Of a stretch of DNA of 64,000 nucleotides, positions 2,079 through 48,369 are shown in pieces. The stretch covers positions 105,214,001-105,278,000 of the forward strand of contig NC_092345.1 of the NCBI RefSeq assembly GCF_963676685.1, in the 5' to 3' direction. The stretch is from Mytilus edulis (taxonomy: Eukaryota). The translations under genes were made by a program, and so were the position numbers. The notes beneath the pieces are model-generated. The model was not told where the DNA came from and did no database searches. It saw nothing but the letters and a program-made list of their open reading frames with translations. Within the stretch, counting starts at the first letter, position 1, and each line of letters opens with the position of its first letter.

Positions 2079-2299
2079 AATTAGACAACATAACTGACAA
2101 TGTACAGTCATAAAAGAGGGGCTAAAAATACCAGAGGGACAGACAAACTCATAAATCGAAAATAAACTGACAACACCATGGCTAAAAATGAAAAAGACAA
2201 ACAGCCAAATAAGTACACAAGACACAACCCTATCATGATCACACTTATCTGACTAAATGACTACCGACTATATTAGATGACGTGAACGCAAAGCATCCA

Positions 2300-4053: not shown

Positions 4054-4139
4054 CTATTTCATCATTGCATCACCTTTTATACGTCATGAGTTAGATATCT
4101 TGTCTGTCTACTGACTAAAATAAGACGTGTATACCTCGC

Positions 4140-11953: not shown

Positions 11954-13063
11954 TTAACAACCTGTGATGTTCACTTTATACAGATTTGCATTTTCAGAAC
12001 TATCTTCTAGTGTGCTGCATCCTATGAATAGAACCGTAAATTGTCCTACCGAGGCAATGGCTAGAGAATACGGCAGTGATACTCCAATATCAGTGGTCGT
12101 ATAGGTGGTCAATATGTGACCAGTATTGTTCAGTATATGTAATGTATGATTTTGACAGTCGGATACTATAACATTGTCTAATGGCGTGGTTACAACTGAT
12201 GTTGGTCTGAATGGACAGTGTTTAATGATGGGATTGTAAACACGAATCACATCTACCTTCCCTAGCACCACCACTCGGCGTAAATCCGCAATAAATATAT
12301 TCTCATTACTTGTACTGTTAATAGACATTGGCCATTCAAATAAAGGTTTTTGGTTTTTATCGTTTTCATGCCATGTCAGACGGCTACCGTCTGTATCCAT
12401 GACACCGATAATTTCTCTGTGTTCAGGATCTTTTTTATTTGCAGCTATTATCACTTTTCCATTCTTTGTCACGTGTACACATGAAATTAAGAATGAATCT
12501 GCATGTAGCTCATACGTAGATTCTGACACTTTATTAACGGAAGTAATGATTTGCTTCAGCTTTGTTTCTCGTGTAGCCATCAGCAGGTCATTGGTATGGG
12601 TTATAGCTATGTCCCACACATCAATGTTAAACGTAGATAGAACCTTCAGTTTTTGTTCTTCGACTTTTACCTTTTGAAGGGCAGTTGGTTTAGAGAATGG
12701 ATGGAATCCTTCCAGTTCATTTCCATCACCAATCCAAATCGAATCATCTAATGATATTGCTAAAATTGTGATATTCTCTAATGTTGTCGGGAACTTTTTT
12801 ATATTAGTTATTTTTACTTCTAATCTTGGTGTCATCACTTCTACGTCTTCTTCCGCGTTAAAAGCATCATACTCTTCTTTCCCATCTAACTGAAGTTCCT
12901 TTATATCAATAACTCTATGCTCATTGGCGGCCTTGAATTTAGGATGTACCCTGTCTTTACACTTTATGCACATCAATAACTTACAATCTAAACATTTCCA
13001 TTTGACTTTTGGATCTACTTCACATAACGCACATACCATTGCACATTGTTCTTGTGAAGTCAT
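11954..13063 (-). CDS. TRIM-like protein: N-terminal B-box zinc finger + C-terminal NHL-like beta-propeller, single coding exon
   Basis: CALC..WKCLDC..MC..C..VH..H B-box pattern; propeller motifs WPMSINSTSNENIFIAD, FRPTSVVTTPLDNVIVSDCQNHTLHILNNTG, PYSLA..LFIGC, typical of the expanded bivalve TRIM2/3/71-like family. Confidence 0.85.
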   Translation of the reverse strand: MTSQEQCAMVCALCEVDPKVKWKCLDCKLLMCIKCKDRVHPKFKAANEHRVIDIKELQLDGKEEYDAFNAEEDVEVMTPRLEVKITNIKKFPTTLENITILAISLDDSIWIGDGNELEGFHPFSKPTALQKVKVEEQKLKVLSTFNIDVWDIAITHTNDLLMATRETKLKQIITSVNKVSESTYELHADSFLISCVHVTKNGKVIIAANKKDPEHREIIGVMDTDGSRLTWHENDKNQKPLFEWPMSINSTSNENIFIADLRRVVVLGKVDVIRVYNPIIKHCPFRPTSVVTTPLDNVIVSDCQNHTLHILNNTGHILTTYTTTDIGVSLPYSLAIASVGQFTVLFIGCSTLEDSSENANLYKVNITGC

Positions 13064-13749
13064 ATTTTGTGGTAACGTTGCTTTTTAACTGTAAGTATGG
13101 AATTATTATAGTTGAAGTTTATCAAAAGCTATTTCGTGGATCGCAAAATAGTTCTATTATTTGACTTCTCATTGGGACCAGGAAGTATTTATATTGTCGT
13201 CAGGATGAACAACAGCCAAACGTGAAATTTATAGTGTGAAAGCATTGTTTTGGACCAGAGATTTCAATGTTTTAACTTTTAATTTCAGACTTTGTATAGA
13301 TATATCAGATTTATATCGAACTTGAATATGAACAATACAACTTTAGGGAATTCGATCAGGTTTAGCTTAAATGTCTACGTAAGCGAAAAAAACACGGCGG
13401 CATATGGAGAACCGACCGCAATTTAACAGGCAATCATTTTTTTCAAAATTTAATGTCGACGAAACCTAACGAAAAAATATTGTGTAAACTATGAACTTTT
13501 ATTATAGTTGTTGTGAGTAATCGATACACCGCGAGAGCTTAGCTCTAATTGGTATTTCTAATTTACACCAATAAATTATTGTCAATGCAGATATGATAGT
13601 TGAAGTGAAGTGAGGAAAAGGGATGGGGGTAGGGGTATTTTTGGTCCTATCTTATTGAAAAGCATAATAAATGCGCTCCTGCATTGTAATCCAGTTCATT
13701 TAACGACATCTTTCTGTAAATAATTGTTTCAAACAGGAACTGTGTTCTA

Positions 13750-27215: not shown

Positions 27216-27636
27216 ATGGATACCAATCATTCTATATCCTCTCCACACAGTGAACATAATGACACCCATACAGATGCGGGCACAACAGTAAACTTTGACA
27301 ACTTGTATCCTGCCATTGTCCAATGCTTTGCCGTCATTCTCTTCGGTTACATTGCTGGCCGAGCAAATATCATCTCTACCTCACAAGGAAAAGGAATTGG
27401 GACTTTTGTCTCAAAATTTTGTCTTCCTGCTCTGCTTTTCAAAAATATGTGCATTTTGGATTTTTCCATTGTTAACTGGATGTTTTTGATAAGTGTGTTG
27501 ATCTCAAAATCTGTTGTATTTATAATTGTTACAATTGTAACATTAGTTGCCAAGCGACCAGTTAATTATGGATATGCTGGATTGTTTGCTATTTTCTGTA
27601 CACAAAGCAACGACTTTGCTTTAGGATATCCTATAT
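27216..27636 (+). CDS. GPR155: GPR155 coding exon 1
   Basis: Upstream acceptor ttttcttcatttcag ends at 27085 (5' UTR part); ATG 27216; donor T|GTAAGT; phase 1. Confidence 0.93.
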
Positions 27637-30600
27637 GTAAGTACATGTATATATTGGCTCCTACATGTACATAAAGTTATGTTAATGTTGAGAACTTTGT
27701 TTTCAAGAGAAAAAAAAATCAAAGTAAAATATTTAGAGATTAAAATCTCTTGTTTAAAATTTTAAAGAACAACAGAATTTACATAAAATCATACCCTACA
27801 ATGTGAATTTGACATTACATTTATATGTGTAGTAACATGCAGACTACCTGTATTTAAAAAAATGTTTATTCAGTATTAGCATTGTATTAAAAATGTCATT
27901 TACCATGCATGTTGAATTGTCATTACTAACATTTCAAAACTTTTTCTTTTTTTCAGTACAAGCCTTGTACCAAGAAAGCCATCCACAGTACCTGAACTAT
28001 ATCTATCTGATAGCTCCTGTGTCTGTAGTTATTCTCAACCCTATTGGATTTTTATTGTTGGAAATTCAGAAAAAGAGGGAAGGGGATAAAGTAGAAGTGT
28101 CTAAGAGTATAAATGACTCTGGTTCAAAATCTGGGACATGTGCCTTGATACTACATGTGATTAAAGGTGTAATCACGAATCCCATTGTATTCATGACAAT
28201 CATTGGTATTGTTGGAAACTTCATACTACGGAGAAATTTACCTTTGGTTATCTCAGAAATTCTTGATGTTTTAGGTATTATAATTGTTTTTGTTTTATTT
28301 AGAATTAAAACATGTGAATAATATAATAACAAAATGTATTCTTAAAATTTAACATTATTATTTTAGATATATCTATATATAAAGAAGATGTAGTACATGT
28401 ATGAATGCGAATTCGACAACTCTCCATCAGAGACCAAATGACACAGAAACTAACAACTATACATACTATACATACTATAGGTCACTGTACAGCCTTCAAC
28501 AATAAACAAAGGCCTTAACACATAGCCAGCAATATAAGGGGCCGAAATGACAAATGTAAAACAATTCAAAAGAGAAAAATAAATGACCTAATTTATGTAC
28601 AAAAAAAAGTGAATGAAAAACAAATATATGTAAGACAGCAACAAAAAACAACCACTGAATTACAGGTTCCTGACTTGGGACAGCAACATATAGACTGTGG
28701 CAGGTTTGAACTAATTCGAAGGTGCTAACCATCCCCAAAACAGTGGTGCAACAGCACAACAGAAGAACAGACTATGAAACACAATAAACAAATAACTATA
28801 TGCTGTTTTAAATGACAATTATTTATATGTTTCCATGTCTGCTGTACAGATACATGTATATAATTTACTTGTATGTATTATTTACATTTCAATGAAATAT
28901 GATAAAGATATTTCATTTATATTAATGAGATATTAAAAAAATGTTTAACAATACACAGTTCATGTACACATGCATTTTTGTTTTTTCTAGTTTTTAACTG
29001 CAGTTTATAGTGATATCTTTATCTTTACAGGTGATGCTTTCTCTGGAGCAGCTTTATTTTATCTTGGTCTAAGTTTGGTAGGGAAAATATCAGGCCAGAT
29101 GGGTCCACAACTAATTGTACCAGTACTTCTAATAGCAGCTAAAGCGTAAGTATCTAGGATTATGAATAATTAAAACACTTTTACATAGGCCATAACAACA
29201 TTGATTGATTGATTGTTGGTGTTAAATGCCATTTTTGAGCACTTTTAGTTACATCATGGAGGTCAGCTGTTATTGGTATTTTTGAAAGAGTCAGCATACC
29301 TGGAGAGAACCAATTCCTTTGGCAGGAAAAAACATGCAATCTTTGTCAATTAAGATAGTAGTCGTAGGTATCTTCAAATAGCAAGGTTTGAACTCACAAT
29401 CACCTTGTTGACAGGCTAGTGATTACCAAAGATGAACTTGTCAGACAACTAAGGTCCACTGTCAGAATAAGAGGCAGTCTGAAAGTGTCAGCATCATTAA
29501 AAAAATATAGTTACCATGGTTACTGTCATAATGAAAAATTACAGCATTGTTTCCATGACTGATCAAGTGTTCCATATTGTTTTTGGTAATTTTTCTTTTC
29601 AAGTTGAGAATTCAAATATGCTTTACCCTCCAGTTGCAATTTAATGCATATTCAGGATGACTATGAATGCAAAAAGGCACTTTAAATCTACTAATTATCA
29701 CTTATAAATTAAATTAATTATTTATTATATTGATTATTATTCACATTTAAACTATCATATAAAATGTATGTCTAATTAATAGGTTGATTCTGCCATTAAT
29801 AACATGGGAAGTTGTTGGTGCTTTAGAGAAATCCTATAGTGACAAGAATACTACAGAATCATTGAGTATGTTTGGTTTCTTATATGGCACATTCCCAACA
29901 GCGCCATCTGTCTTCTTATATGCCAGCCACTACTCTATTGGACAAGATATTGTAAGTAGCAATTTGAAATATAAAGTGTATTGTAAAAAATATAAGGAGA
30001 CGTGGTATGAATGCCAATAAGACAACTATCCACCAAAGTTGTGAAATTTGTAGAAAATAAAGATACTTGAATTCTCTTTGGTTTTTTTTTATGTATTAAA
30101 TTATTTAAAAACTACACAGGAAAATAAAGTCTATAGATATCTCATTCAAGATAAAGAGAGAAATAAGAATGCAAAACTACAATATGTGTTGAAATAAAAA
30201 CAAGAACCGTGAGATATCATCTATACACATTGATATAAGTGTGTTTAAGATATCTCTATAAAGTAAATGTTGGGCCAAAACTAATTAACACATTATTAAG
30301 GAGAAAACCAAATAAGTTACAATATATTGCAGTAAATATGCAAGTGAAAACCATTCAAATTTGTATTTAATATGATTTTAGGTGGCCACAGGAATGGTAG
30401 CTGGTACATTCTTGTCAGCACCTATCATGTTTGTGTCAGCTAAAATGTTAACAGTTGTAGTGAACAGTGAGCTGGACTATAAAACACTGATGTTAGAGAC
30501 TTCATTTGATACTAGTATCATTAGCTTAGTCTGCAGTGTAAGTAGTAATAAGTATACTTTTTAAATGAAATAAGGTTATAATTAAGGTAGTAGTAAATAA

Positions 30601-33600
30601 AATTATATATGGTATATATTCTTGTGTATTTTCTTTTATTTGAAAATAATAAACAAAAGTGTAGGTTGTTTTTTTTAAAGAACAAAAGTTTCTATTACAA
30701 AAAATGTTGTAATTTTACTGTTTGTATCATTTTTAACTGCTGCCATATCTTCATACCCTTGGCTGGTACTACTTTATCTTGTCTTACTCATGTAACCCAA
30801 GATGATAACCAATTCAATAATTTCAGGGGCTTCTCATGCTCAGGTTTATTTTGGGCATTGGGTAGTAAATTTGAAAATTTAAATGTCTATGAAGCTGTAG
30901 AATCTATATATATAATTGTTGTGCAAGTAGTTTCTAAATGATATATCGTGTCAGAAAAGGCCATATATATTAATCTGTATGTTTGACATCGTTAAGTTAT
31001 TATGTATACTGTTAATTTTTGTTTTATTTTCTTGATGTTTTGGAAGGTAGGTTAATTATATACTTTGTGTAAATATCAAATTTATTTTTTTCCTTCCCCT
31101 GCTTTTATAAACCTTGATTAATAGTATTCAAAGCTTGAAATCTAGTATTGGAGTTAAACTTTGTAGGCAATACTAATAGGCATTTTATAATCCTAGGTTT
31201 AATAGTTTTAGGATGCACATTTTCAGTGGAATATAAGGACTGATAGAATATCATGTTTTAATTTCTGCATAAATATACACACAAAAAAAGGGGTATTTTT
31301 TAATTTCATATTTTTGAGGGCTTTCTTTGTATTTGTTTAGTTAGTACTAGTATGAACCTTTATTAGTTTAAGGGGTTTATGATGCAATGCTATTTTTGTA
31401 ATGCCACATAATCATGTCAAAACAACATTGTTTAGCTATTTTAATTTTATACGACCGCAAACAAAATTTTTGGGATCATATAATGGTATGATGTCGTCGT
31501 CATCTGCCTCGTCTGAAGACACATTGGTTTCTAGACAATAACGTTAGTTTAAGTGAATAGATCTTTATGAAATTTTTTCAGAAGGTTCAATACCACAAAA
31601 GGAAGGTTTGGATTGATTTTGGGGATGATGGTCCCAACTGTTTAGGAATTAGGGGCCCAAAAATGGCCAAAAACCAGCATTTTTCTAGTTTCAGGATAAT
31701 AACTTGTGTATAAGTATTTCTATTGCTCTGAAATTGTACCACAATGTTTACTACCACAAGTAGAAGGTTTGGATTCATATAAGGAGTTATGAGGCCAACG
31801 TTTAGGAATTCAGGGCCAAATAGGGCCAAAAACAAGCATTTTTCTAGTTTCTAGACAATAACTTGTGTGTAATTAACTGTATGGATCTCTCTGAAATTGT
31901 ACCACTGTTCAGGGTTCGACCACTGGGGTCGTATAAAGCTGCGCCCTGCTGAGCACCTGTTTTTTTTCTATGTTCAGTTTCATTGTTGTAAAAACAATGT
32001 CTTGTGATAAACAGACTTTTTTAAAATATGTAAATCTGTGATGCGATGAACAGGTTGTCAAAAGCAAATTCAAGAGAATACAACAGTTAAGATAATATAT
32101 TTAGGGGGTGGTGAAGATTTGTTCTTCTTATTTATACAAGTACCTTTATAAATTTGACAGATATGGGTTGTAGTTTTGATGTTTCTGAGTGGCAGATACA
32201 AGAAAATGCCACATCAGTTTCTTCTTTGTTTCTGTGTGGCTCATGTAAGTACTTATAATAACGTTTTATGATAGAGAACACTGTTAGACTTATAATAACG
32301 TTTTATGATAGAGAACACTGTACACTTATAATAACGTTTTTAGAGAACACTGTACACTTATAATAACGTTTTTAGAGAACACTGTACACTTATTGATTGG
32401 ATTTTGGTTACGCAGATAAGTTTCTACCAATTTACATTTCAAAAACCAAACTTTTACCTCAGAAAAAACAGGTGTTTGTAAATGTTCAGTGAATTCATAA
32501 GTAACTCCCCCCCTCCCCCCTATTTGCAGTAAAGTTTCCGATGAAACCAATATATCAAGAGTTTACTGATGAGTTAATTGAACCAAGAATTACAATGATA
32601 CACATATTTACACATATAGGGACACAAACAGTCAAAATTATACACTTTTGTTACTGATACATTTATAATTTACATTATTTTACTTAATAGGTGTTTAGCT
32701 GTTTAGGACTGATTACGTATGAAGGAACCCACAACCAACCAATCACATGGGTACATCTGGTTCAGTTCACCTTAATTCTAGTCGGAGTTCTGTCAACAAG
32801 ATGTTGGACTGCAGTTATCTCCCTTTGTTTGTACTTCCTCCATTGTAAAAGTTTATGTTTTGTACTCAGAATAAGATGGTGGCTGATACTTGCTGGTTTT
32901 GGGTTGGTATTCCTTTAATATATATTTGATACATGTAGTAGAATACCATTAGAAGTAAACCATTATAGGTCAAGGTCTTCAACACAGAGCAGAAGCTCAC
33001 TTCGAACAGCAAGCTATAAAAGGCACCCAACAAATTACTGGTGTAAAACCACACAAACAGGAAAACCAATAGTCTAATCTTTATAAAAGAAAAGAAACAC
33101 TTATGAACCACATCAACAAAGGCAACTACATCAGATTCCTATACTTTATTATATTTTTTACTGAAATCATTATTTTGACAGCAAATGTTATTGTCAACAC
33201 CTTAAAAATAGGAGCAATCCCCCTTGTACTGTTTACAGGGGATTTGCCTTGGATCCAGTGTGAGTCTTATCTCCATTCATGTCTCTATCTATTTGGTAGA
33301 TAAATTTTGAACTGAAAGGTCCTCCTTGCCAAAAACATTATAAAAGTTATATGCAATGAACTGTTTTCAGCATTATAAGTCTTAATAATAAATTAATCAT
33401 ACATTCTACACCTTTGTGTTGTAGGATATCTATGTTCTGTTCAGCATTTTAAGATTTAGTGATAAATTAATGATGATTTGTTTACCTTTGTAGGATACCT
33501 ATGTTCTGTACAGGTTTATTAATTATGCTGGCTGGACATCACATGCATGCTGAAATAGACCCTTCATTCCATTATGGTGCTGACCAGGTAGGAATACAGA

Positions 33601-36600
33601 TAACAACCATTTATTTTTTATTTTCAATGTTTGCAACAATAAATAAACTTCTAGGTTTATTTTGCTGTTTCTTTAAGTTATAATGTATATCTAAACTAAT
33701 TTAGCACATCAACATTTTGCTTCATAAACTTCAAACTGAAATGTGACTGATTATTTGTCACGGCACTTAGTCAATATTATTGAAATACAACTAACAATAA
33801 TATACTAGTTTACTTAAAGGTTTTTGGGATACGATTGCTTTCAATCAATCTGTAGACTTATACTATTGGCTCAGGGCCATGCCCTCACGTCAACCGTTTT
33901 ATTCTAAACATTCAGCAACATCTCAGATTCTTATGATTGTCTTGCTTTAACCCTTTCGCGGCGAGTGTATCCTTCAGGATACACAATGCGCAGGGCGGAT
34001 GTATCCTTGAGGATACATGATGCGCAGGGCGAGTGTATCTTTCAGGATACATAAATATTGTCCCAATGAAAACCGCAATTTTACAGTATTTGCCGTTCTT
34101 AACAGTTGAAATCAATGCTTCAATCAAAATCTACGATACCTGAGGGTCATATTTTAGTTCTTCAGCAGCATTAATAACATCGTGAAAGGTAAATAAATCA
34201 AATCGGAAAATTTTATTTTCTAAAATTAGAACCGGAAACACGTTTTGAGGTCATGTGAGGATTCAAAATGGCTCCTCTCGATAACAAGCAGTGGAAGTAC
34301 GGCTGTTTTCGCTCTTTTAAAGGAGCCCTTCACATTTCATAGGTATTGTTGGATATATAATAATAATAAATGATTCAATATATATTTATAAATAATGAAA
34401 GCGATCATTGGTAGGCCCTTTTCCCCACAAGTAGGCACAAGACAGGTAAGACTTGCATGTAGTTTTAATTTTTTGTCACCGGTTTCGAGGGGAAAAGATA
34501 ATTGGGTTTGGAATGTACGGGAAAATGCACGAAATTAATTAAGGAAGTACAAGTTCGTCTGCTACTATTGCAGTCTAAAAATGTCGTCAGACGAATCTGA
34601 CGGCGACTTTGAAGGGTTTAGTGAAACTGATGTTATAAATGCCGAACAAGAGGTTTTGGCCGCTGAGGAAAGGTTGCGAGTTATTTTGAGTGAACAGGGG
34701 ATAGGGGATGACAGTGATGGAGATCTCAATGAGTCTGAAAATGAGGATGAAGGGGAGGAGGAGGTGCATATTGATGAGAGAGGAGATGGTGGCGATGGAT
34801 GGCATTCTAGGTTTGATATTTATGAAAGGGGTTTACCACATTTATTTAACCCTCGTGGCAATACTGGGCCAAGTCGCGTCATGGGTGCTGAAAAGGAAGT
34901 CTTAGATTTTTGGCAACTCTACATGGGTGATCAATTTCTTGAGTTTCTTATTAACCAAACAGATAGTTATGCCAACTATAACATTCAGCATAGGCCAAAC
35001 GATAACAAAATGCCTTGGAGTATCCCAACTTTACCAGAAATTAAAGCATTTCTTGGTCTAACCTACCAAATGGGAATAAATCGCAAACCATCTACTAAAT
35101 TATATTGGTCAACCGATCCAGTTATGGTCACCCCAATATTTTCATCAACAATGACCAGAGACAGATACACCCAAATATTGCGGTACCTCCATTTCTCTAA
35201 CATTGCAAATGAACCTAGACAAGGAGAACCAAATTATGATCCTTTATATAAAATTAAACCTGTAGTTAACCATTTAAATAATAAATTTGGTTTAGAATAT
35301 ATACCAAAAAGAAATGTCACCATTGATGAGTGTATGGTACCTTTCAAAGGGAGAACATTATTGAAACAATACTTACCAAGTAAACCACATAAATGGGGCG
35401 CAAAGGTTTGGATGCTGGCAGAATCTGCCAACAGCTACATACAATATATAGATGTGTATCCAGGTAGAACAGTTAGAACAGAGGGCAGTCTGGGTTCTTC
35501 GGTGGTAAAGAATTGTTTAGAAGGTGCAAATATTGCAGGTCAGGGCTATCATGTTTATACCGATAACTTTTTTACATCGCCTAACCTTTATTTAGAGTTG
35601 TGGGAGAATTATGACACAGCTGCATGTGGAACAGTCCGTAACACTAGGGCAGGTTTGCCAAAAGATATCATGTGTAAAAAGCCAGTTAATGTTGTAACTC
35701 GTGGAGACCATCAATTCAGGCAAAAAGGTGCTTTGTTAGCGGTATCTTGGAAGGACAAAAAAACTGTATCAGTATTGTCAACAATACACAATGAAAGCAT
35801 TGGTCAAGTTACTCGTTCAGTAAATGTTGACGGCCAATTTGCAAGACAGGAGTTTAATTGCCCATCTGCTATTGTTGACTACACTTGTAATATGGGTGGT
35901 GTTGACAAAGCAGATCAATACATTCAGTATTATTGTTATCACCAGAAAACCTTAAAATGGCCAAAAAAAGTATTTTTTAGTCTACTTGAGATGGTTAAAT
36001 TTAATGCCTACAGATTATTCACATTAAGTCCAAACCATTCTTCAAACCTCACATTCCTTCAGTTTTCTTGTTTGCTGATAAAAGGATTGATCAATGGATA
36101 TTCTGCCGGGGTACGGAGAGGAAGGCCATTACTTGCCCCTGATCAGAGATTGATTCAAAGACACATGCCTACAACTTTAAATAGTAAAGGCAGGTGTCAT
36201 GTCTGTTACATGAGACAGAAGAATGGCAAGCAAGACAATATAAGACAAACTAAATATGGGTGTTCAGTATGTGGCAAACACCTCTGTATGCCTCAATGCT
36301 TCACAATTTACCATACAGAGAAGAATTACTGCTAGACTGACTTTGTGTTCTTTGTTTAATACCGTTTATTGTTCCAGTTTTATTCATGGATTTGTGTTAT
36401 AACTTTTAAACTTTTTTCAAATTGACCTTTAATTAACTGAATAATCATGACAATTGGTGTAAAAAATGTGAGGAAAAGCAAGAGAATTACAAAGAAATAA
36501 TCCTTGAGTGAATGGCACACAATTCATAGGTGAGTCACTGAATGTTGGTTGTTTTTTGTTCTTGTTCGTTTAAATCTTATTGTTGAAAATTTATAAATTA

Positions 36601-39600
36601 TTTTGAAGACTTTAGTTATACGTGTACTGATAAAAAAAAATATCTTTCAGTTCCAGTACATTTAAGTTTTGTAACTTGATATGGTAAAAAAACCTGCACT
36701 GAATGATCAAGAATTGAGAATACCTGTTATGTGTGTACACAATAAATGAATGTAAAATTTCATTTTATAAGTGAAATAACACAGGTTTGAACATTGTTTT
36801 CAATTTAGACTTGTATAATACTATATAATGAAATTCGAAAACTGAGTGATTTTAAAACTGGAAATACAAATAGTGAATCCATGAATAAAGCTGTAACATA
36901 TCGGGGAATTACAATTGGTACTAGAGAAAGTTGAAAGTTACCTTTGCCTAAAAAAAAAAAAAATACAAATGTTCTTGTACATAATGGTGATTCTGATTAT
37001 TTATTTCTATATTTAATAGTATAGTAAATAACTGACATTCCTGGCCAGCTATTCTGCTCTATTCTTCTATTCTTCTAAAATAAGTTGCAAGAGCTGATTG
37101 AAAAAAGGCATAATATAATTTGTCTTTGTTGAATCTGAGTATAGAAGATCATAGAAAGGTTTCTTTTTGCAAAGCATTTATTTTAGCATTGAAAAGTATT
37201 TTTTTTTGCAATTTTTTTTTTTTTTTTGCAAAGTTTCTAAAACAAAATAGTGACATTTATTCTTGGAGTATGAATCAAAAATTTCATATCTAATTTGTTT
37301 GATAATCGCTCTTATCAAAATTAAACAGTGTTTTGAATTTTAACAACGTATCTGTGGTTCCATATATTATTGTACATCGAAAAAGAGTAGTCGTTCGTCG
37401 ATTGACAGAGTTGTCTTTTCATCAGTACAAATGGCGGTCGTAAACGGAAAGTCAAAACGGTCAAAAATGAAAGATAAAAAGCTTCGAACTTGCCATAAAC
37501 GATGTTTGAATGACCAAATCGATTGATAAGATAAATGAGAAGACTCGGTAATAGCGATTTGCCGGATATTATACGTTTTAAATGCATTTTACACGTATTC
37601 AGTATCGAAATTTTGGCAACATTGAGCAAACAAGGTAACAAAATCAAACTTTCAAACATCATAAGGACTTTATTATTCGTTTCAATTTGATAAGACATAG
37701 AAAATATTAAACATAGTAATCTATTCAACTTCCGTATCAGTTTTTTTTGCAATCTGTGCCGTGGTTTTCCAGTTGCAGCACGTTTTTCAAGTTGCAACTT
37801 TTCTTGAAGCACCGATCACGAAATTAATTCAGGCTGGGGAATCTGAGCGTGCAAATTTGCCTCGGCCACAGAAACCCGCGGAAAAAATAAATTCAGTAGT
37901 GAAAGTGTTAAAAGGTAAAAACAAGTAAAAGGATTGAACATAAACAACTTTCCTGTAATGTTCTTCTCATAATCTTCATGTTTGATATTTCCCTTGACCT
38001 ATATGCGTTTTTTTAACAACACGGAAAATCAGAATACACCTTATCGCTATTCCCGGCTGACCCGTCCGCTTGAACTTTTGACGTCAACAACAATCACTTT
38101 TCCATTGTGGCGTCAGACATTTTGTTTTATGACGTCAACATTTTACGGGAACCTGTGTGATTTCCAGCAATGGCGGACAAATAGCGATAAGGTGTATTAA
38201 GGAGGCTCGCGGGTATAAGATTTTCCGAAAAAAAATAAACTTTAATTTTTCATTACAAATTTTATTCCCTTCCTTAAGTAGTTGTTACTTTATCATATGA
38301 TCCAAAATTCAATCCGAAAAATCAATTCGTGTTGGCCCCGGGTGACTTTTAAAGTGTTGATATCACCGAAAAAGCTCCAAATTATCTCCCTTTGGTGCAA
38401 AAATGCCATTTTTTGGTATTAAAATTGAAATATCTTTGTTAAATCATCGGTGACCTATATTTTTTATTGTTGTTTTCGAAAAAGCTGTACATGAACTAAA
38501 TAATTGTAAAATTTAAGCGATTTCTGTAATTTAGTTCTTTTTTTATTTCGATATTACCGATATTTCTCCTATTAGTTCAACAGAAAAAAAGGACATTAAC
38601 AAAAATGTATGCTTCTTTCGAAGGCAGATAGTGAGCGTAAATGAACGGTGACCCCATTTTTTTATTTCATTTTTCTATTAAGAATAAGTTAAAGTTCGTT
38701 TATAGAAAAATATAGGTATATCCTATATTAAATAAAAAAAAAATGATTTAGACCCGCGAGCCCCCTTAAGCAGTATTTATATTTAGTGTTTTTATAAATT
38801 TAGAAACACGTCAGAGGGAATTCCCCAGTTTTGATAAATGCGAGAGTTCTCTGAATTCCGATAATTCTATTTCTGTCATGTAAGAACTGAAGTGGAGTTT
38901 TTCCATATTTTACCGGTATGAAACTGAAATTTGATACTGTACTCTCATTAAGAAATGGAGAACCATTCATCATATCATTTAATAAACATTCTTGTTCCAA
39001 GTCGCAAGTCGCGGGTTTGTTTATGTATTAATGCGCATGCGTATTGTTTTCTTGATTTCAAGAGGTATCAGATTGAGTGGTTGCTCTGGATTCCATGCTT
39101 CATTGATTAATTTGAAACTCATGGGATTCTTTCTATGTCTGTCTGCTATTGAGGATTATTGTTGTTGCATAATTTTAAATCATATGCATCATTTAAATTA
39201 AAATAAATGTAGTGTTTACCTATAACACCCCTTCAGCCGAAATGGAGTCTTCCATATTATTGTTTCGAGTTGTCTCCCTCCCGGAAGTATTTTCTGTCAA
39301 AATCGAAATACAATACGACTCGTCAAGAAAAATTAACTCGCTAGATGTCGATAAACGTCGTATTATATTGAGAACAATCTCAATTTAAACAGAGGAGTGT
39401 GTACAGAAAGGAGTCATGCCCATGGTCCCAAAGGAAGTTAATATTTAAAGAGTTAGAAATGGGGTTCCTCCTAGAATTAACGGTGATAAGATACGAAGTG
39501 AAATACCTTCTCTCACTATCGGTGACTGCTGTGGAAAGTAAACATAGAATTGATAGTACAAAAATAAAACACAATACGTACATTGCTCATACACTTGTAT

Positions 39601-42600
39601 CCGGGATTGGCTATTTTTAAAGTTGAGTGACTATTCAGATTATTACATTTTGCATATGCAGTTGAATTAGTTTTGAAAATAATACTATCCAGCTGTACCA
39701 GGGCTGCCAAAAATGCGTGAGACTCATGCATGTTCATGCTTATTTGCGGCAGTATCCTTGGATCTATTTTTTTCCCTCTTTGATCTTTTCAATTTTGGCC
39801 AAATCTCAGGCATTTGCTTAATGAAAAGTTGACAGAACTGCTATACATGTGTCAATGAAAACTATGGCAATCATATCCCTCAGAGCATTCTGCTCTTTGA
39901 TTTCCCTTCTTTATTTAAAATTTTATAAGATAGAAATGCACTGTACAAAATAGAAACTTCTAGTATCTCTTTGTTTTCTTGTAAAATATTAACATATTGA
40001 CAGCTTCAGACTACACTGAAATGTAACACAGATTGTCTATATTATGTGAAACAGCTGAGACATGTGTTATAATAACTACATATGTCTCACCTGTGTCATA
40101 TTTTATGATGGGGGAAACAAGAATCAATGAGGAATTAAAATAGATACATATAGTTTTGAGAAATGATATACACTTTAAAATGTGTAGTGAACCAACACTA
40201 ACAGCAGAGACAGAGGAAAAAATATATGACAAGTCTTACTCTCCAATAATGTTTCTTTTCACAAGTCATCCTGTCATTCTTAATTCTATATAGTACTGTT
40301 TACTTTATGTATACATATATTTCTATTTATTAGCTAATTTATAATGTCTGTAGTGAGAGATATTTTATCACACTAGATGCAGTGGTAGAATATAAATGTA
40401 TATATTATTATACAGATTTTATTTGTTTTACAGACCATCTTATCCCTGATAATCTTGACTGTGTGTAGTGCAATAAACATTGTCTGTCTAATATTAAAAC
40501 AAAGGAATTCATCAGCGTATTTGAAATTACGAGAACATAAGAATGGTGACATATTAAACAGTAAGAGAAAGAAAAATGATGGAATGAAGGACGACAGTCG
40601 CTGTAGGTTGTTAGGAAGGAGAGACAGTAATGAAGAAGATTATAGATCTATTAATGACTGTAACAATTGTGATAATTCATGTGAAGGTAAATACTGTTCA
40701 GAAAGGATGTTTAAGATAAGATTTGAATCAATCCAAAAAACAACAATAGATTTAGAAATAGGTTTTACTAATCACTTTGTGCAAAAAATATAGAATACAG
40801 AATAACAATGAAACCTGTAAAAGCATATATTATATTTTCATTTCCAGTCCCATTTCACTGAAGATTTCTTTGTTCTGTTAGATTAAATTAAATAGATTGC
40901 TTAATCAATCGTGAAAGAAAAGATATTTGTTTTTTTGTTTTAGTTCAAAGGTTAGGTTGAAAAGATTTCTGTAGACTGTATAATTTTAAAGATGATACTT
41001 ACACAATGTGATCCTTTGATATAACCTTTAAAGGTAATTTTGAAAGTAAAACTTGAATAATATGCTCTTTTGTATAATTTGTTTGTCTCCTGCCATTATT
41101 TATATTTCTTTATAGGAGTAGGTAGAACCAGTATTGAAGATATAGTGCCTTTCCCTAAAGAGACAGAAAGTCTGATATCTGACACGTCCAGTACTACTAG
41201 TGACAGCCTAACAGAGACGTATGAAGTAGAGCAGTGTGTGTATGGCACTTGTGGTATAGAGCAGAGACGTAGGTGTGCGGGTCTACTCAGGAAGTATAAT
41301 ACATCTGTCGTAGCGATACCGGATGAAGATTCTGTAGGCAGCAATCGATCAAGGAAAGTTAAAGATGATTTCCAAAGTAACAGATTTATGTTGATGTTGG
41401 TTCTCTGTCAAGTTTCTATGTTTATGGTAAGTGTCAAGTTTCTATGTTTATGGTAAGTGTCAAGTCTCTATGTGTATGTTAAGTGTCAAGTTTCTATGTG
41501 TATGGTAAGTGTCAAGTTTCTATGTGTATGGTAAGTGTCAAGTCTCTATGTTTATGGTAAGTGTCAAGTTTCTATGTTTATGGTAAGTGTCAAGTTTCTA
41601 TGTTTATGGTAAGTGTCAAGTTTCTATGTATATGGTAAGTGTCAAGTTTCTATGTTTATGGTAAGTGGCAGCAGTTGATGTTGATGTTGGTTCTCTGTCA
41701 AGTTTCTATGTTTATGGTAAGTGGCAGCAGTTGATGTTGATTCTCTGTCAAGTTTCTATGTTTATGGTAAGTGGCAGCAGTTGGTGTTGATGTTGGTTCT
41801 CTGTCAAGTTTCTATGTTTATGGTAAGTGGAAGCAGTTGATGTTGATGTTGGTACTATGTCAAGTTTCTATGTTTATGGTAAGTGTCAAGTTTCTATGTT
41901 TATGGTAAGTGTCAAGTTTCTATGTATATGGTAAGTGTCAAGTTTCTATGTTTATGGTAAGTGTCAAGTTTCTATGTTTATGGTAAGTGTCAAGTTTCTA
42001 TGTTTATGGTAAGTGGCAGCAGTTGATGTTGATGTTGGTTCTCGGTCAAGTTTCTATGTTTATGGTAAGTGGCAGCAGTTGGCAGGGTTTCCCCTGGGTC
42101 AATTATTTTTTTCGCCACCTCTTTCGCCAAAACAATATATTTTTCGCCACTTGATTATTTTTTTCGCCAAGTGACATAAATATATTTTTCGTTTAAAATT
42201 TACCTTTTTTCTAACCCCCCCCCTTTTTCCCCCACTACTTCCCTTTAAAAAGATGATTTCGCGCCATTGTATCTATGATTATTCTCTCAAACTTATTTTA
42301 GAGTCTACATTTTAATGAATAAACACTAAGCATTTACTTTAAAACAACAGATTTTTTTAACTTAAAAGGGAAAAACATTCATAGTATTTTAAACAGCTTT
42401 TCTAAATGAGGGGGCCACTATACTTTAAATAATAAAGAAGATATAAGTCCTGGAATATAACAAAATTCATGGACATGTTTTGATCATATAATACCATTAT
42501 ACTTCGTTGGGAAAGTTGATTTCTCATTTCATGTGTAGTCATTACATTGAAGGGTTACTCTCATTCGAGGGATTGTTCCCAACCTTTTGGACAGTTTTCT

Positions 42601-45600
42601 TTTCTTGACCATCGTAAATGAAAAAGTTGAGACGTAATTTTATGCTTGAAACACGTGTGTCACTCAAACGACTTTACAGTAGACTCCCTAAGCAATTACC
42701 TATATTAAAGTCAAAGGATAATTAAAGTTTTAAATCAGAGATTTTCTTGCTTTTGAACATTTTTCGTCACAACAACAGCTTTCTTTTCTAAACTATCGTT
42801 AAAAGGAGAGGTGACGTCAAAAGTTAGCTCCAAACACGTGCGTCGCAAAGTGTGAATAAATTATGTATGTGACATTTAGCGGAAGCCATTTAACCATATC
42901 ATTTTTTCAAACAATACAATCAACACCTTTATTAATTAGTCCTTTGTTGTCGATAGCTATAAAATGCAATCAGCTGATTATTGATTTTCTGTCCAAATCT
43001 TATTGAGGTCAAGGTGAACTCCGAGTATTGTCTGATCGAGTAAAGTCCGAGAAACTCGGAAAAAAGTAAATAAACAAGATGTAGGAAATAAATCGTTATA
43101 AATATTTCTTTCGCCAAATTCTTTCACAAATGACAATTTTTTATCGCCACAATTATTATTTTTTCGCAAATTGCGAAAATGGCGACCGCCAGCGGAAACC
43201 CTGGCAGTTGGTGTTGATGTTGGTTCTCTGTCAAGTTTCTATGTTTATGGTAAGTGGCAGCAGTTGATGTTGATGTTGGTTCTATGTCAAGTTTCTATGT
43301 TTATGGTAAGTGGCAACAGTTGATGTTGATGTTGGTACTATGTCAAGTTTCTATGTTTATGGTAAGTGTCAAGTTTCTATGTATATGGTAAGTGTCAAGT
43401 TTCTATGTTTATGGTAAGTGGCAGCAGTTGATGTTGATGTTGGTTCTCTGTTAAGTTTCTATGTTTATGGTAAGTGGCAGCAATTAAGGTTGATGTTGGT
43501 TCTCTGTCAAGTTTCTATGTTTATGGTAAGTGGCAGCAGTTGGTGTTGATGTTGGTTCTCTGTCAAGTTTCTATATTTATGGTAAGTGGCAGCAGTTGAT
43601 GTTGGTACTATGTCAAGTTTCTATGTTTATGGTAAGTGTCAAGTTTCTATGTTTATGGTAAGTGTCAAGTTTCTATGTATATGGTAAGTGTCAAGTTTCT
43701 ATGTTTATGGTAAGTGTCAAGTTTCTATGTTTATGGTAAGTGTCAGCAGTTGATGTTGATGTTGGTTCTTTGTCAAGTTTCTATGTTTATGGTAAGTGTC
43801 AAATTTCTATGTTTATGGTAAGTGTCAAGTTTCTATGTTTATGGTAAGTGTCAGCAGTTGATGTTGATGTTGGTTCTCTGTCAAGTTTCTATGTTTATGG
43901 TAAGTGTCAAGTTTCTATATTTATGGTAAGTGTCAAGTTTCTATGTTTATGGTAAGTGTCAGCAGTTGATGTTGATGTTGGTTCTCTGTCAAGTTTCAAT
44001 GTTTATGGTAAGTGTCAGCAGTTGATGTTGATGTTGGTTCTCTGTCAAGTTTCTATGTTTATGGTAAGTGTCAGCAGTTGATGTTGATGTTGGTTCTCTG
44101 TCAAGTTTCTATGTTTATGGTAAGTGGCAGCAGTTGATGTTGGTTCTCTGTCAAGTTTCTGTGTTTATGGTAAGTGTCAAGTTTCTATGTTTATGGTAAG
44201 TGTCAAGTTTCTATGTTTATGGTAAGTGGCAGCAGTTGATGTTGATGTTGGTTCTCTGTCAAGTTTCTATGTTTATGGTAAGTGGCAGCAATTGATGTTG
44301 ATGTTGGTTCTCTGTCAAGTTTCTATGTTTATGGTAAGTGTCAGCAGTTGATGTTGATGTTGGTTCTCTGTCAAGTTTCAATGTTTATGGTAAGTGTCAG
44401 CAGTTGATGTTGATGTTGGTTCTCTGTCAAGTTTCTATGTTTATGGTAAGTGGAAGCAGTTGATGTTGATGTTGGTTCTCTGTCAAGTTTCTATGTTTAT
44501 GGTAAGTGGCAGCAGTTGATGTTGATGTTGGTTCTCTGTCAAGGTTCTGTGTTTATGGTAAGTGGCAGCAGTTGATGTTGATGTTGGTTCTCTGTCAAGT
44601 TTCTGTGTTTATGGTAAGTCAGCAATTATTTGTAGTCCGCTTGAGATTTCCAGATACGTCTGTTCTGTTTTGGGGGGCTTTGGCATAAGAGACAAAATAC
44701 TGGATTGACAATGACAAGATAGAAAATATGGTGTTTTTTTTACTATTTCAGTAAATATCAGCTTCTCTTCTGATATCTCAATTCACATCAATTTCAATTT
44801 TTCACCAAATCCAATTTTAACAGAGTGCATGCTAGAACAAAGAAAATGTTGTCATGTTTGTTGTAACAAATATTATTAATATATTAATATTTTATTTTTT
44901 GTAGGGACTTTTTTTGTGTACATGGAGACTGTTTAATAAAGTTACAACAGGAACATACGTAGAAGTAGAATTCCTTGACGGTGTGATGAACTATGGTCAG
45001 GTAAGTCTGTTTGATAGTTTGCTGTCTCATGGTCATGTAGCCTCTCTTTTAATTCATATAAAATTCATGTTTCATACATTAGTTAACTACTGATTCTACA
45101 GATGAACTGAGTGTTATATACATGTACAATTTTTCTCTAGTCAAGACTTTGTCTTTCTTTTTCAATGATTGCAAAAAAGATGATTTCTTTTAATGTGATT
45201 TCATCTGGCATGATTGCTCTTTTTAAGATGTCATGCTAACATATTTAGAGGAACACCAAAAAAATGAACTCAAACAAACCAGTCCACATGTTGATTATAA
45301 AAAGACAACCAATTGTTTTAAAAATGTTTAAAAAGACTAAAAGTTAGAAAAGTTCACTTATATTGTAAATTGAGAAATGTCATATTGAAAAACAAGGAAA
45401 ATGAGACAGGATTATTATTACATTGGTTAGAATTTTTGTTTCTGAATGCAGTATTTGTATGCAGTGTTTCATAAAAATACATGAAATAAATCTTTCATAT
45501 ATGCTTATTTTTTGTACAGTTGCATTAACATCTACATGCACAAATTACAAAAAATTTGAGCATCAAGTTGGTATTTATAAAAGTATTAAACTATTAAAAA

Positions 45601-48369
45601 AAAAGTTCCATGGACAAAACCATTTTTTTTTCCAGGGATTTATTGAACAAAACTGCTTTATTTTGTAGGGATTTATTGAACAAAACTACTATATTTTGTA
45701 GGGATTTATTGAACAAAACTACTTCATTTTGCAGGGATTTTTTTAACAAAACTACTATATTTTGTAGGGATTTATTGAACAAAACTATTTTATTTTGTAG
45801 GGATTTATTATATTTGCGATATTTGGGTTTGATACCAGATTAATATTCTTGCCATGTATAAAAAGGTATGTACAATGTTATTCTCTAATAGATATTTTAT
45901 ACTGGTGGTCAGACACAATAGTTCTAGTTTAGGAAAGTACAATGATGGTTTAGTATATAAAAAATCTGTTCAATCTTTACATGGTGGAAGGGGAAAATAG
46001 TACTTTTGTAGCTGGAATTTTTTGTGTGAATAATACCTTGAACTGATAATCAGTTTATTTCTATTGAAAATTGGTAAATGAGACTTAAATTAAACCTGGT
46101 CAAAAATTAATTTTCCCATATGCCATAACCAATTATTTCGAAAATTGTTTTCCCTTTAATTTCTTTTAAGACAAGGATTTAAGATCCATTACAAGAACCA
46201 GTTCAGAAAATATTGTTTAAGAACTATCGACAATTTATGAAACTTTCAATAGGGGAAATCCCTCCTCTGAAATTAAAACAAAACGGTATAAGAGGTGGTG
46301 AATTTGCGATTTCTGGCATGTTACACTCCTTTTAGGTTGGGACAAGTGAGCTTTTTATCAGACTACTTCTTATAGGACTTATTCCCATACAAAAGAGGAT
46401 TTTACCCATTTTCTATTGACCTGAAACATATAGATAATCTTTTTTATAATCCAGCCCATACAATATTCCTTTATAATGGTTAATTTACTTTTAAAATGCA
46501 TTGAAGATGTGAAACTTATAAATGATTTTAAAATTATACCACGTTAGTCAATATGTATATAGATGTAATGGTTATATTGTAGCTTGGTCAACTTTAAACG
46601 TAAATTGTTAAAAAGGTAACCGTCTTATATGTTGTAATGCATGGCATGTTGTAATCGATGATATGGCAGTGTTATCTTGGGTTCAAATGTACTTTAAATT
46701 GCATGTTAATTTGTTCAGTGCTCCTATGATGGGATTTATTTGTATTCAATGTGGCTAAAATTATCAGAGGGACAAATATTTTTCCTTCATCTATCAATAT
46801 ATATATGTGTACCTAGATATGTTTTAAAACCAGAGATTGCAGATGTTCAATTTTATATATTTTTTTTTAATTGTTCTTGTTTGAATGAAATGCTAGTTAG
46901 TCATCCTATATAGTATAGCACTTTCATAGAACATGGCATTTCTAAAAGATGTTATCACTTGATATTCCTAAATGTTATCATATGACACTCCTACAAAACA
47001 AGTTCCTTTATATTATAATGGTCCTGGGGGCCCTGGTAACCGAGTAGTCTTAAGTAATACAACTACTGTATTACAAGCCAGTCAACACCAAGGTTGTGGG
47101 TTTGAATTTCAAACATGGTAGGTGAGCTTGACTCTAATCTTAATTGACTACAATTGTCAGTTTTCCAAAGGTAGGTTGTTCTATCCTGGCACTGGGATTC
47201 TTCCACCAATAAAACCTGACCACCATGAAGTAGCACAATAGTGGCGTTAAAACACCAATCAAACATTTGACACTCCTACAACAAATTATCACATGACACT
47301 CCTACAACAAATTATCACATGACACTCCTACAACAATTTTTAAAGAATTCTTTCTATCAGTAATCTATACCAGTGGTTAGTTATGCAGATAAATTGAACC
47401 AACATGTTATGTTTGTCTATAATTACATTGATACTAAATTAAGTAAGATATTTAATTATATAAGTATTTTCTATGAATAAAAACTCATTTTCATTTCATT
47501 ATATGAATATCTGAATTTATAGAATAACTGATTTCTTGATTGTGTGTATATTACAGATGGCGTAAACTTGTTTATGGTGTAGAAATTGTGACACTTCCAG
47601 ATTCCTCCGAACTTGATGAAGAAACAATGCATTTATGTGAACAGTTTAAAAAATACCACAAAAATAATTGTTCTAAAGCTATTGTTAAAGATCTAAAGTA
47701 AGTACTGTTTGCTATTAATTAGGACATTCAAAAGCAAAACCCATTGATGTTTTGGGAATATTTCCTACTTAACACAGTTATTCACACAGTAATTATTCCT
47801 GGTGATTTGGTTATCCATGTAAAACAAAATGTTATAAATCAAAACTTATAGAATAAATCAAAAAAAAAAGAAAAGATATGATGAATTAAAAAATTAATGA
47901 CAAAAGAATTTGAATTTTAAATGATTAAATTATTAGTTTAAAACAAATTGTTACTTTTTGTTTTTTTATGCATTATAAGTTTTTGTGAATATGAATGATA
48001 GGAGATGTTGGGTATTCATTAATCTGACAGCAACCCAAATGACATAAAAATTTAACAAACATTTAGTATTATGAAGACAATGAATAGTAATTCACGTATT
48101 ATTAATGACATAGATGTTTTTTTCACAGAAATATAACAAAGATTTATTATAATTTCAGATATAGGTTAAAAGAATATAAACAAGTATTTACAGGAACCGA
48201 CATGTGTGATTGGTTATTAGAAGTTGGTTTAGCCCATGATAGGGGAGAGGCCATAGAATATGGACGTACTCTTGTTACAGGACACATTGTTAGTCATGTG
48301 ACCAAGGAACATCATTTTCATGACCTGCCATATTTTTACAGTTTTATTGAAGAAGAGGAATATGATTGA
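27216..48369 (+). CDS. GPR155: GPR155/LYCHOS (lysosomal cholesterol sensor: permease-like TM domain + GPCR-like TM domain + C-terminal DEP domain), 14 coding exons, 881 aa
   Basis: join(27216..27636,27957..28274,29031..29145,29783..29951,30382..30537,32161..32244,32691..32902,33494..33587,40434..40686,41116..41426,44905..45000,45801..45865,47557..47697,48159..48369). All introns are GT-AG, phases are consistent, total 2646 nt. Motifs recognised: LYPAIVQCFAVILFGYIAG, FCLPALLFKNM, FCTQSNDFALGYPI, LYGTFPTAPSV, YVEVEFLDGVMNYGQG, and DEP domain FTGTDMCDWLLEVGLAHDRGEAIEYG...HHFHD. Confidence 0.95.
27957..28274 (+). CDS. GPR155: GPR155 coding exon 2
   Basis: tttttttcag|TA CAA GCC; QALYQESHPQYLNYIYLIAPVS..NPIVFMTIIG; donor G|GTATTA. 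Confidence 0.92.
29031..29145 (+). CDS. GPR155: GPR155 coding exon 3
   Basis: ctttacag|GT GAT GCT; DAFSGAALFYLGLSLVGK..LIAAK; donor GC|GTAAGT. Not in the ORF track. Confidence 0.92.
29783..29951 (+). CDS. GPR155: GPR155 coding exon 4
   Basis: taatag|G TTG ATT; LILPL..FLYGTFPTAPSVFLYASHY; donor ATT|GTAAGT. Confidence 0.92.
30382..30537 (+). CDS. GPR155: GPR155 coding exon 5
   Basis: ttttag|GTG GCC; VATGMVAGTFLSAPIMFVSA; donor AGT|GTAAGT. Confidence 0.92.
31445..31962 (+). mobile_element. HINE-like element (second family) with ~2 internal repeats
   Basis: ttttatacgacc.. / ..ggtcgtataaa sub-terminal inverted repeat, GTC microsatellite, internal duplication. Confidence 0.65.
32161..32244 (+). 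CDS. GPR155: GPR155 coding exon 6
   Basis: ttgacag|ATA TGG; IWVVVLMFLSGRYKKMPHQFLLCFCVAH; donor CAT|GTAAGT. Confidence 0.9.
32251..32392. repeat. 33-37-bp tandem repeat (4 units) starting directly after the exon-6 donor
   Basis: ACTTATAATAACGTTTT(ATGA)TAGAGAACACTGT x4. Confidence 0.9.
32691..32902 (+). CDS. GPR155: GPR155 coding exon 7
   Basis: ttaatag|GTG TTT; hydrophobic TM segments; donor GG|GTTGGT chosen to match the phase of the next exon. Confidence 0.85.
33494..33587 (+). CDS. GPR155: GPR155 coding exon 8
   Basis: cctttgtag|G ATA CCT; GIPMFCTGLLIML..IDPSFHYGADQ; donor CAG|GTAGGA. Confidence 0.9.
33961..34052 (+). repeat. Three ~34-bp sub-terminal direct repeats of the piggyBac, each with palindrome TGTATCCT-NN-AGGATACA
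   Basis: gcgagtgtatccttcaggatacacaatgcgcagg x3, read directly. Confidence 0.85.
34581..36335 (+). CDS. piggyBac transposase (PGBD4-like, DDE_Tnp_1_7), intact, 584 aa
   Basis: Acidic N-terminus; DDD triad in TIDECMVPFKG, YTDNFF, MGGVDKADQ; KPHKWG; C-terminal cysteine-rich domain RCHVC..CSVCGKHLC..CF..YH; no stops or frameshifts. Confidence 0.96.
   Translation: MSSDESDGDFEGFSETDVINAEQEVLAAEERLRVILSEQGIGDDSDGDLNESENEDEGEEEVHIDERGDGGDGWHSRFDIYERGLPHLFNPRGNTGPSRVMGAEKEVLDFWQLYMGDQFLEFLINQTDSYANYNIQHRPNDNKMPWSIPTLPEIKAFLGLTYQMGINRKPSTKLYWSTDPVMVTPIFSSTMTRDRYTQILRYLHFSNIANEPRQGEPNYDPLYKIKPVVNHLNNKFGLEYIPKRNVTIDECMVPFKGRTLLKQYLPSKPHKWGAKVWMLAESANSYIQYIDVYPGRTVRTEGSLGSSVVKNCLEGANIAGQGYHVYTDNFFTSPNLYLELWENYDTAACGTVRNTRAGLPKDIMCKKPVNVVTRGDHQFRQKGALLAVSWKDKKTVSVLSTIHNESIGQVTRSVNVDGQFARQEFNCPSAIVDYTCNMGGVDKADQYIQYYCYHQKTLKWPKKVFFSLLEMVKFNAYRLFTLSPNHSSNLTFLQFSCLLIKGLINGYSAGVRRGRPLLAPDQRLIQRHMPTTLNSKGRCHVCYMRQKNGKQDNIRQTKYGCSVCGKHLCMPQCFTIYHTEKNYC
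38037..38194. mobile_element. Tc1/mariner-like MITE
   Basis: Perfect 15-bp TIR CACCTTATCGCTATT flanked by TA on both sides. Confidence 0.8.
38201..38765. mobile_element. Non-autonomous Kolobok-like element
   Basis: TTAA TSD on both sides; TIR GGAGGCTCGCGGGTATAA / GGGGGCTCGCGGGTCTAA; purine termini point to Kolobok rather than piggyBac. Confidence 0.82.
40434..40686 (+). CDS. GPR155: GPR155 coding exon 9
   Basis: gttttacag|ACC ATC; TM helix followed by a cytosolic loop; donor G|GTAAAT. Confidence 0.88.
41116..41426 (+). CDS. GPR155: GPR155 coding exon 10
   Basis: ctttatag|GA GTA; SIEDI..Cys-containing loop..RFMLMLVLCQVSMFM; donor ATG|GTAAGT, which is the first unit of the donor array. Confidence 0.88.
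41407..44620 (+). repeat. Tandem array of the GPR155 exon-10 3' end plus 5' splice site (26-bp and 56-bp units, ~50 GTAAGT donors)
   Basis: Short unit CAAGTTTCTATGTTTATG|GTAAGTGT; long unit adds CAGCAGTTGATGTTGATGTTGGTTCTCTGT; interrupted by a hAT element. Confidence 0.97.
42083..43203. mobile_element. Non-autonomous hAT-type element inserted into the donor array
   Basis: TIR CAGGGTTTCCCCTGG / CAGGGTTTCCGCTGG; 8-bp TSD GCAGTTGG (42075..42082, 43204..43211); sub-terminal TTCGCCA repeats. Confidence 0.92.
44905..45000 (+). CDS. GPR155: GPR155 coding exon 11
   Basis: ttttttgtag|GGA CTT; GLFLCTWRLFNKVTTGTYVEVEFLDGVMNYGQ; donor CAG|GTAAGT. Confidence 0.92.
45612..45809 (+). repeat. Six 33-bp tandem copies of the GPR155 exon-12 3' splice site
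   Basis: AG|GGATTT with AG ending at 45635, 45668, 45701, 45734, 45767 and 45800. Confidence 0.95.
45801..45865 (+). CDS. GPR155: GPR155 coding exon 12
   Basis: ttttgtag|GGA TTT ATT; GFIIFAIFGFDTRLIFLPCIK; donor AG|GTATGT. Confidence 0.9.
47025..47265 (+). mobile_element. tRNA-derived SINE-like repeat
   Basis: GGGGCC..TGGTAACCGAGT (A-box-like), GGTTTGAAT (B-box-like), ..CCACCAATAAAAC..AAAACACCAATCAA tail; related copies at ~29200..29450(-) and 24770..24890(+). Confidence 0.55.
47557..47697 (+). CDS. GPR155: GPR155 coding exon 13
   Basis: ttacag|A TGG CGT; WRKLVYG..LCEQFKKYHKNNCSKAIVKD; donor AA|GTAAGT. Confidence 0.9.
48159..48369 (+). CDS. GPR155: GPR155 last coding exon (DEP domain)
   Basis: aatttcag|A TAT AGG; VFTGTDMCDWLLEVGLAHDRGEAIEYGRTLVTGHIVSHVTKEHHFHDLPYFYSF; stop TGA 48367..48369. 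Confidence 0.93.

Follow-up and report, generated by a model that had tools for sequence, protein, structure and literature searches.

The window, by which we mean the whole analysed stretch of 64,000 nucleotides of the Mytilus edulis contig NC_092345.1 (positions 105,214,001 to 105,278,000, assembly GCF_963676685.1), carries on its plus strand a GPR155/LYCHOS gene in which the boundary between intron 11 and coding exon 12 is repeated in tandem six times. With exon 10 as query, Mytilus GPR155 proteins were matched, and the exon borders were fixed by matching the genomic DNA to the M. edulis model XP_071158713.1 (P0011, 892 amino acids), with which the spliced translation of the 15 exons agrees letter for letter. 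This protein matches the structure chains of human LYCHOS (E 9e-163) and contains the Pfam domains Mem_trans (33-358) and DEP (819-885); the layout of LYCHOS/GPR155, a PIN-like transporter with a 7-helix domain and a DEP domain, is found in the mussel gene. Exon 11 ends in phase 0 with Q743 of the QG motif, which is assigned to transmembrane helix 17 (TM17) in a cryo-electron microscopy preprint (10.1101/2024.09.24.614577), and according to the alignment to human LYCHOS the exon 11/12 junction falls inside this motif. Exon 12, whose numbering in an earlier note on this DNA was right, is flanked by an intron 11 of 800 nt (phase 0) and an intron 12 of 717 nt. The M. trossulus annotation divides the GPR155 gene between two models (P0009 and P0014) with lengths of 288 and 623 amino acids and an overlap in exon 3, which is likely a split made in assembly or annotation.

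The acceptor array and the exons around it

27216..48369, plus strand: GPR155/LYCHOS coding span, 15 coding exons including a microexon, GT/AG spliced
44905..45000, plus strand: coding exon 11, 96 nt
45612..45809, plus strand: 33-bp minisatellite of six units, an acceptor-type mirage
45612..45644, plus strand: unit 1, decoy acceptor CAG ending at 45635; the most diverged unit
45645..45677, plus strand: unit 2, decoy acceptor TAG ending at 45668, which is the in-frame stop for decoy 1
45678..45710, plus strand: unit 3, decoy acceptor TAG ending at 45701
45711..45743, plus strand: unit 4, decoy acceptor CAG ending at 45734, followed by an in-frame TAA at 45744-45746
45744..45776, plus strand: unit 5, decoy acceptor TAG ending at 45767
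45777..45800, plus strand: authentic acceptor TAG, phase 0, joined in RNA-like contigs and top in weight-matrix score
45801..45865, plus strand: coding exon 12 (65 nt), with the latter half of the last membrane helix

Each unit comprises 24 nt of the end of intron 11 and 9 nt of the start of exon 12, and the last one continues directly into the exon. Such head-to-tail repetition of a unit that straddles one of the host gene's exon-intron boundaries makes the array a mirage or exon-boundary minisatellite. The six in-register units with acceptors that the earlier note had described were confirmed by Tandem Repeats Finder, which gave a score of 301 to 5.9 copies of period 33 at 45614-45809 with 87% matches, and by a degenerate unit pattern, for which all six matches in the window lie within the array and none of 100 shuffles reached six (shuffle mean 0.00). 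An exact 30-letter pattern matched the 1.37-Gb genome twice, both times within the array (control 0), and a DNA search of the same genome with 341 bases gave one match, the locus itself. As both searches, which give lower bounds, match only this locus, the unit is local and no dispersed satellite. The AG is intact in all six units and is followed by GGATTT in every one; the last of them ends at 45800, and the first exon bases for the six acceptors are 45636, 45669, 45702, 45735, 45768 and 45801, just as noted before.

Unit 1 differs from the consensus at six positions and the other units at one to three each. In pairwise comparison unit 1 differs from the others by 5-8 letters, units 2-6 among themselves by 1-5, and this outlying edge unit fits an exclusion from homogenisation. 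The array has likely grown by slippage or unequal crossing-over.

One sequencing run with a different haplotype (four substitutions and a 17-nt insertion) contributes two contigs, one of which (44577-45688) begins in unique intron and reaches the array, while the other (45758-46100) leaves the array for exon 12 and continues past it. In a run under another organism label, 45659-45721, with an inner unit junction, is present unchanged. An assembly slip is an unlikely source of the array because these contigs cover both edges and keep an inner junction. Contigs from other runs end inside the array and the whole of it is spanned by no single contig, as a repeat mis-expanded in assembly would also allow; against this stand the mutual differences of 1-8 letters between the units and the independent contigs of two runs with unit junctions and both edges, and we regard such an artefact as extremely improbable.

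Choice of the acceptor and fate of the decoys

For the splicing of intron 11, eight of 24 listed sequencing runs were examined (X3, X5-X16, X18, X22 and X23 were left out), none of which is on record as RNA; the RNA status of the contig sets X1, X2 and X4 is the guess of a tool, and X20 has no cover of the acceptor array. All three of these RNA-like sets, which come from three studies and cover both exons, join 45000 to 45801, with a depth at the joint of 64.7 (X1), 11 (X2) and 20.8 (X4). No other intron-11 joint was found in these contigs, which drop rare forms, and the depth is zero in bins wholly inside the array. The intron pieces of X2 and X4 show no difference from the window. Likewise, all 12 printed Mytilus proteins spanning the junction (13 printed; 15 of 21 cluster members listed) read YGQG(F/L)I without an insert, and so do the four aligned Mytilus proteins (4/4). 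Every unit keeps its splice signals, and the RNA-like contigs, as far as the major form goes, are spliced at the authentic site. We consider it highly probable that the array is a locus-specific and likely neutral tandem repeat of the intron-11/exon-12 boundary, with the last acceptor used in the spliced contigs, which supports tolerated noise as one of the two readings given in the earlier note.

Translation from exon 11 through each of the five upstream acceptors always meets a stop codon, and only 45801 keeps the frame open (746-757 amino acids for the decoys versus 892 for the normal protein). Three decoys would yield proteins of 753 amino acids, namely decoy 1 with the already described tail GFIEQNCFIL (stop ending at 45668), decoy 2 with GFIEQNYYIL (stop ending at 45701) and decoy 5 with GFIEQNYFIL (stop ending at 45800). 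Decoy 3 would give 757 amino acids with the tail GFIEQNYFILQGFF and decoy 4, with the tail GFF, 746; their stops both end at 45746, in decoy 4 as a TAA. Nonsense-mediated decay (NMD) acts on mRNAs with a stop more than 50-55 nt before an exon junction. All five decoy stops are located 65-197 nt upstream of the next junction, and by this rule the products, judged from their sequence, would be NMD candidates, as proposed in the earlier note. Its alternative of a DEP-less receptor holds insofar as all products are truncated before the DEP domain, but the cut lies inside the last membrane helix and not just before DEP. Because with the junction in the QG motif half of the last helix and the DEP domain are lost, a translated decoy product would probably not function as a short receptor.

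The stops show no sign of design and need none. Simulated single duplications at the exon-12 acceptor, with 15-40 nt of intron and 3-30 nt of exon per duplicate, gave a stop or frameshift in 728 of 728 cases, and over all 14 acceptors of the gene in 8830 of 10192. At exon 12 the stops are automatic because the real acceptor is a phase-0 TAG: an in-register upstream copy reads through this TAG, and a copy out of register changes the reading frame. The five decoys together deviate from the consensus at 13 places, and the probability that none of these hits an AG is 0.43, a within-array value of low power. The decoy AGs are retained at chance level with no hint of excess conservation.

These results bear on the regulated poison switch that had been the other reading, in which a shift to an upstream acceptor shuts off LYCHOS via NMD or a truncated receptor. 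The distance of the five stops from the downstream junction, the intactness of every AG, the alternative splicing of a nearby microexon and the occurrence of the array in more than one haplotype would suit such a switch, but the stops follow from the phase-0 TAG alone, the AG retention does not exceed chance and no decoy junction was seen in the three RNA-like contig sets. Moreover, six copies are more than a switch needs, a truncated product breaks the last helix at the QG motif, and the same type of repeat occurs where no function is known, for example in amphioxus (PMC3087553). The built-in switch is therefore very unlikely.

The earlier note had argued that the first AG after the branch point is usually favoured and that five plausible sites have to be skipped. 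This rule was misapplied, as it holds once a branch point has been chosen; sites 33 nt apart have their own tracts, and in five of the six acceptors a YTRA motif resembling a branch point lies at about -23, formed where the exon start meets the intron piece. According to section 9 of PMC9225289, competing 3' splice sites separated by more than 12-20 nt typically each have a tract and a branch point to themselves. The YTRA motif would be the branch point in these units, and the contest would be one of six whole 3' sites, each with its own tract and branch-point-like motif. No AG would need to be skipped after the branch-point choice because each unit offers such a motif. According to PMC9225289, exon-defined sites pair across the exon and the line for exon definition is drawn, from human data, at flanking introns of more than 250 nt. 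The last site may be favoured since it is nearest to the exon-12 donor, with both flanking introns above this length, since it alone has more than 9 nt of exon (the whole exon) after the acceptor, and since it has the cleanest T-tract. A weight matrix trained on the 13 other acceptors of the gene scores 45801 with 10.5 and the decoys with 4.4-7.4.

Several points weigh against a neutral repeat with exclusive use of the last acceptor. Human 3' sites keep an overall upstream preference, which is merely reduced under exon definition and not clearly reversed (PMC9225289). The decoy scores lie inside the range of real acceptors, which extends from -1.4 to 12.8 in leave-one-out scoring with this matrix of 13 training sites. 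Contigs discard rare variants and cannot show the absence of decoy use, and the raw reads are too thin for rare junctions: X24 has a depth of 0.2-0.4 at exon 12 (19% of the run) and X21 has 0 reads. The 39 reads placed from X24 are nearly all located on a dispersed repeat near 47130-47165 and contain no joints. In steady-state RNA decoy products would be masked by NMD, and stop-bearing forms would rarely enter protein databases. The animals behind X1, X2 and X4 may or may not carry the array, and that these sets are RNA is a guess. Finally, the array is shared by two or more haplotypes and is also present under one further organism label; it is thus no one-off, and no array-free allele was seen among them.

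Because the decoy scores are within the spread of real sites, some leak to the decoys is plausible. Leaked decoy mRNA would carry a premature stop and be removed by NMD, or else would give a protein broken in the last membrane helix, and the cost may be a small loss of mRNA that is tolerated by selection. A stronger claim is an unregulated but measurable leak in which the decoy share grows with the copy number, so that array length would act as a splicing quantitative trait locus on LYCHOS dose. The human insertion CBS 844ins68, a related case, duplicates the junction of intron 7 and exon 8. Its mRNA is for the most part normal, and a nuclear transcript of another form is seen in traces (PMC1334203). 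A leak is also favoured by the decoy scores, by the use of the nearest pseudo-sites in the human 6-16 and CBS donor minisatellites (PMC1557585) and by the different mirage copy numbers in amphioxus haplotypes (PMC3087553). A decoy joint was found in none of the three contig sets, though, copy-number variation at the mussel locus is not shown, and the amphioxus mirages reportedly exist without aberrant mRNA (PMC3087553, PMC3902484), which makes a measurable leak of this kind unlikely.

The donor array of intron 10 and other repeats

41407..44620, plus strand: mirage of the donor type in intron 10, which repeats the end of exon 10 and its donor 52 times, spacings 26, 50 and 56 bp
42083..43203, strand not assigned: 1121-bp insertion in the donor array, 8-bp target duplication, 10-bp terminal inverted repeat
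46583..46615, plus strand: cassette microexon, 33 nt (11 amino acids, SLVNFKRKLLK), just after the last membrane helix and unrelated to the acceptor array

A second mirage precedes the acceptor array by one intron. GTAAGT is intact in 51 of its 52 donor copies, and the array is split by an insertion, which we take to be hAT-like and which arrived after the array had formed. The first, exon-adjacent donor is used in X4, where the loose end before the joint in the one informative contig is exon-10 sequence; reading past this donor meets a stop at 41454. Three other runs also show the donor array, with a high summed depth. The site adjoining the true exon wins in both arrays, and two arrays in consecutive introns fit a repeat-prone genome better than two separate switches.

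The microexon is included and skipped in one and the same run, and both forms occur in models of several Mytilus species, so it is a conserved and real splicing choice; a related form is found in a 77%-identical protein (P0005). Perhaps, as a guess, it forms an amphipathic helix. The 11-residue difference between protein isoforms X1 and X2 was considered as use of a 33-nt decoy and ruled out, as it corresponds to this separate microexon. Unspliced pieces of intron 12 (45866-46731) are present upstream of the microexon in two RNA-like runs and may reflect slow splicing or DNA carry-over.

Two further arrays of the window were not accepted as mirages. About 58 copies of a 27/34-bp unit at 2283-4054 are acceptor-like on the minus strand, and were not counted as there is no clear exon after the last copy; the exon-6 donor lies immediately ahead of the array at 32251-32393 and is not part of it. 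Intron 8 holds a piggyBac-type element (33947-36335) with an unbroken frame of 598 codons (Pfam DDE_Tnp_1_7, E 5e-76), whose left end TTAA-CCCT lies at 33947; an exact search for a right end to match it found none. A single long frame on the minus strand (11954-13084) has a B-box and an NHL repeat, both under the Pfam cut-offs.

In 200 kb of neighbouring DNA 40 arrays were found. An automatic filter applied to 26 of them gave one unconvincing match and missed a case visible by eye, 14 arrays were inspected by eye, and no frequency is claimed. About 74 kb after the window (L009:4209-5529) a 95-bp unit repeated 13 times copies the end of an AG-bounded open stretch of 175 nt, with a GTTAGT donor in 12 copies; from its sequence it looks like another donor mirage of a putative exon, for which a Pfam search gave no match. 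Decayed 34-bp repeats at L008:2487-2780 echo the start of the next open stretch and are probably an old acceptor mirage of a candidate exon.

As a single locus the array is of little weight, since it adds one more case to a repeat type already described. To a modest extent it may serve as a natural experiment on the choice of 3' splice sites, as the same gene holds six near-identical acceptors and, in the intron before, 52 donors, and it is a trap for gene prediction. If length alleles altered LYCHOS expression, the locus would be relevant to mussel nutrient signalling and to how tandem repeats shape expression. It seems improbable that the acceptor and donor arrays both leak into NMD according to copy number and that length alleles thereby tune the dose of the lysosomal cholesterol sensor of the mussel; if true, and with the genome rich in such arrays, bivalves would have in mirages a widespread, unrecognised class of cis-acting expression variants. 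No paper on a Mytilus intron minisatellite with a splice site was found among the open papers searched (subscription journals were outside the scope), and on this weak ground mussel mirages may be unreported there.

Comparison with known boundary repeats

The closest relatives of the mussel array are the mirages of amphioxus. In the globin gene BflGb6, an intron's 3' end and the following exon's 5' portion are duplicated in tandem, with six and three units in two haplotypes; RT-PCR (reverse transcription PCR) suggested normal splicing, and the edge units escape homogenisation (PMC3087553). Further cases are BflGb9 and Adh3 (PMC3087553, PMC3902484) as well as PGBD5 and troponin C (PMC3902484). 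Both systems share tandem units of intron end and exon start, many of which keep the splice signal, and the occurrence of donor and acceptor types; with BflGb6 in particular the mussel array shares the outlying edge unit, here unit 1, and normal splicing is reported there. Differences are the host, a mollusc and not a cephalochordate, the unit of 33 bp compared with 150-160 bp in BflGb6 (10-72 bp in Adh3), the mere 9 nt of exon that are copied, and the copy-number variation and somatic instability, which are not shown in the mussel.

Human CBS 844ins68 differs from the mussel array as it is a polymorphism with one extra copy, compared with five extra copies here. In the human donor minisatellites of F7 intron 7 (37 bp), CBS intron 13, 6-16, LMNB2 and PDGF (PMC1557585), identical sites are likewise repeated into the intron and the exon-adjacent site is used or preferred, although some arrays use the nearest pseudo-sites; early globin experiments with duplicated splice sites, recounted in the same source, gave conflicting results. 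Being donor arrays, these exon-boundary minisatellites differ from the acceptor array of intron 11, whereas they match the donor array of mussel intron 10 directly.

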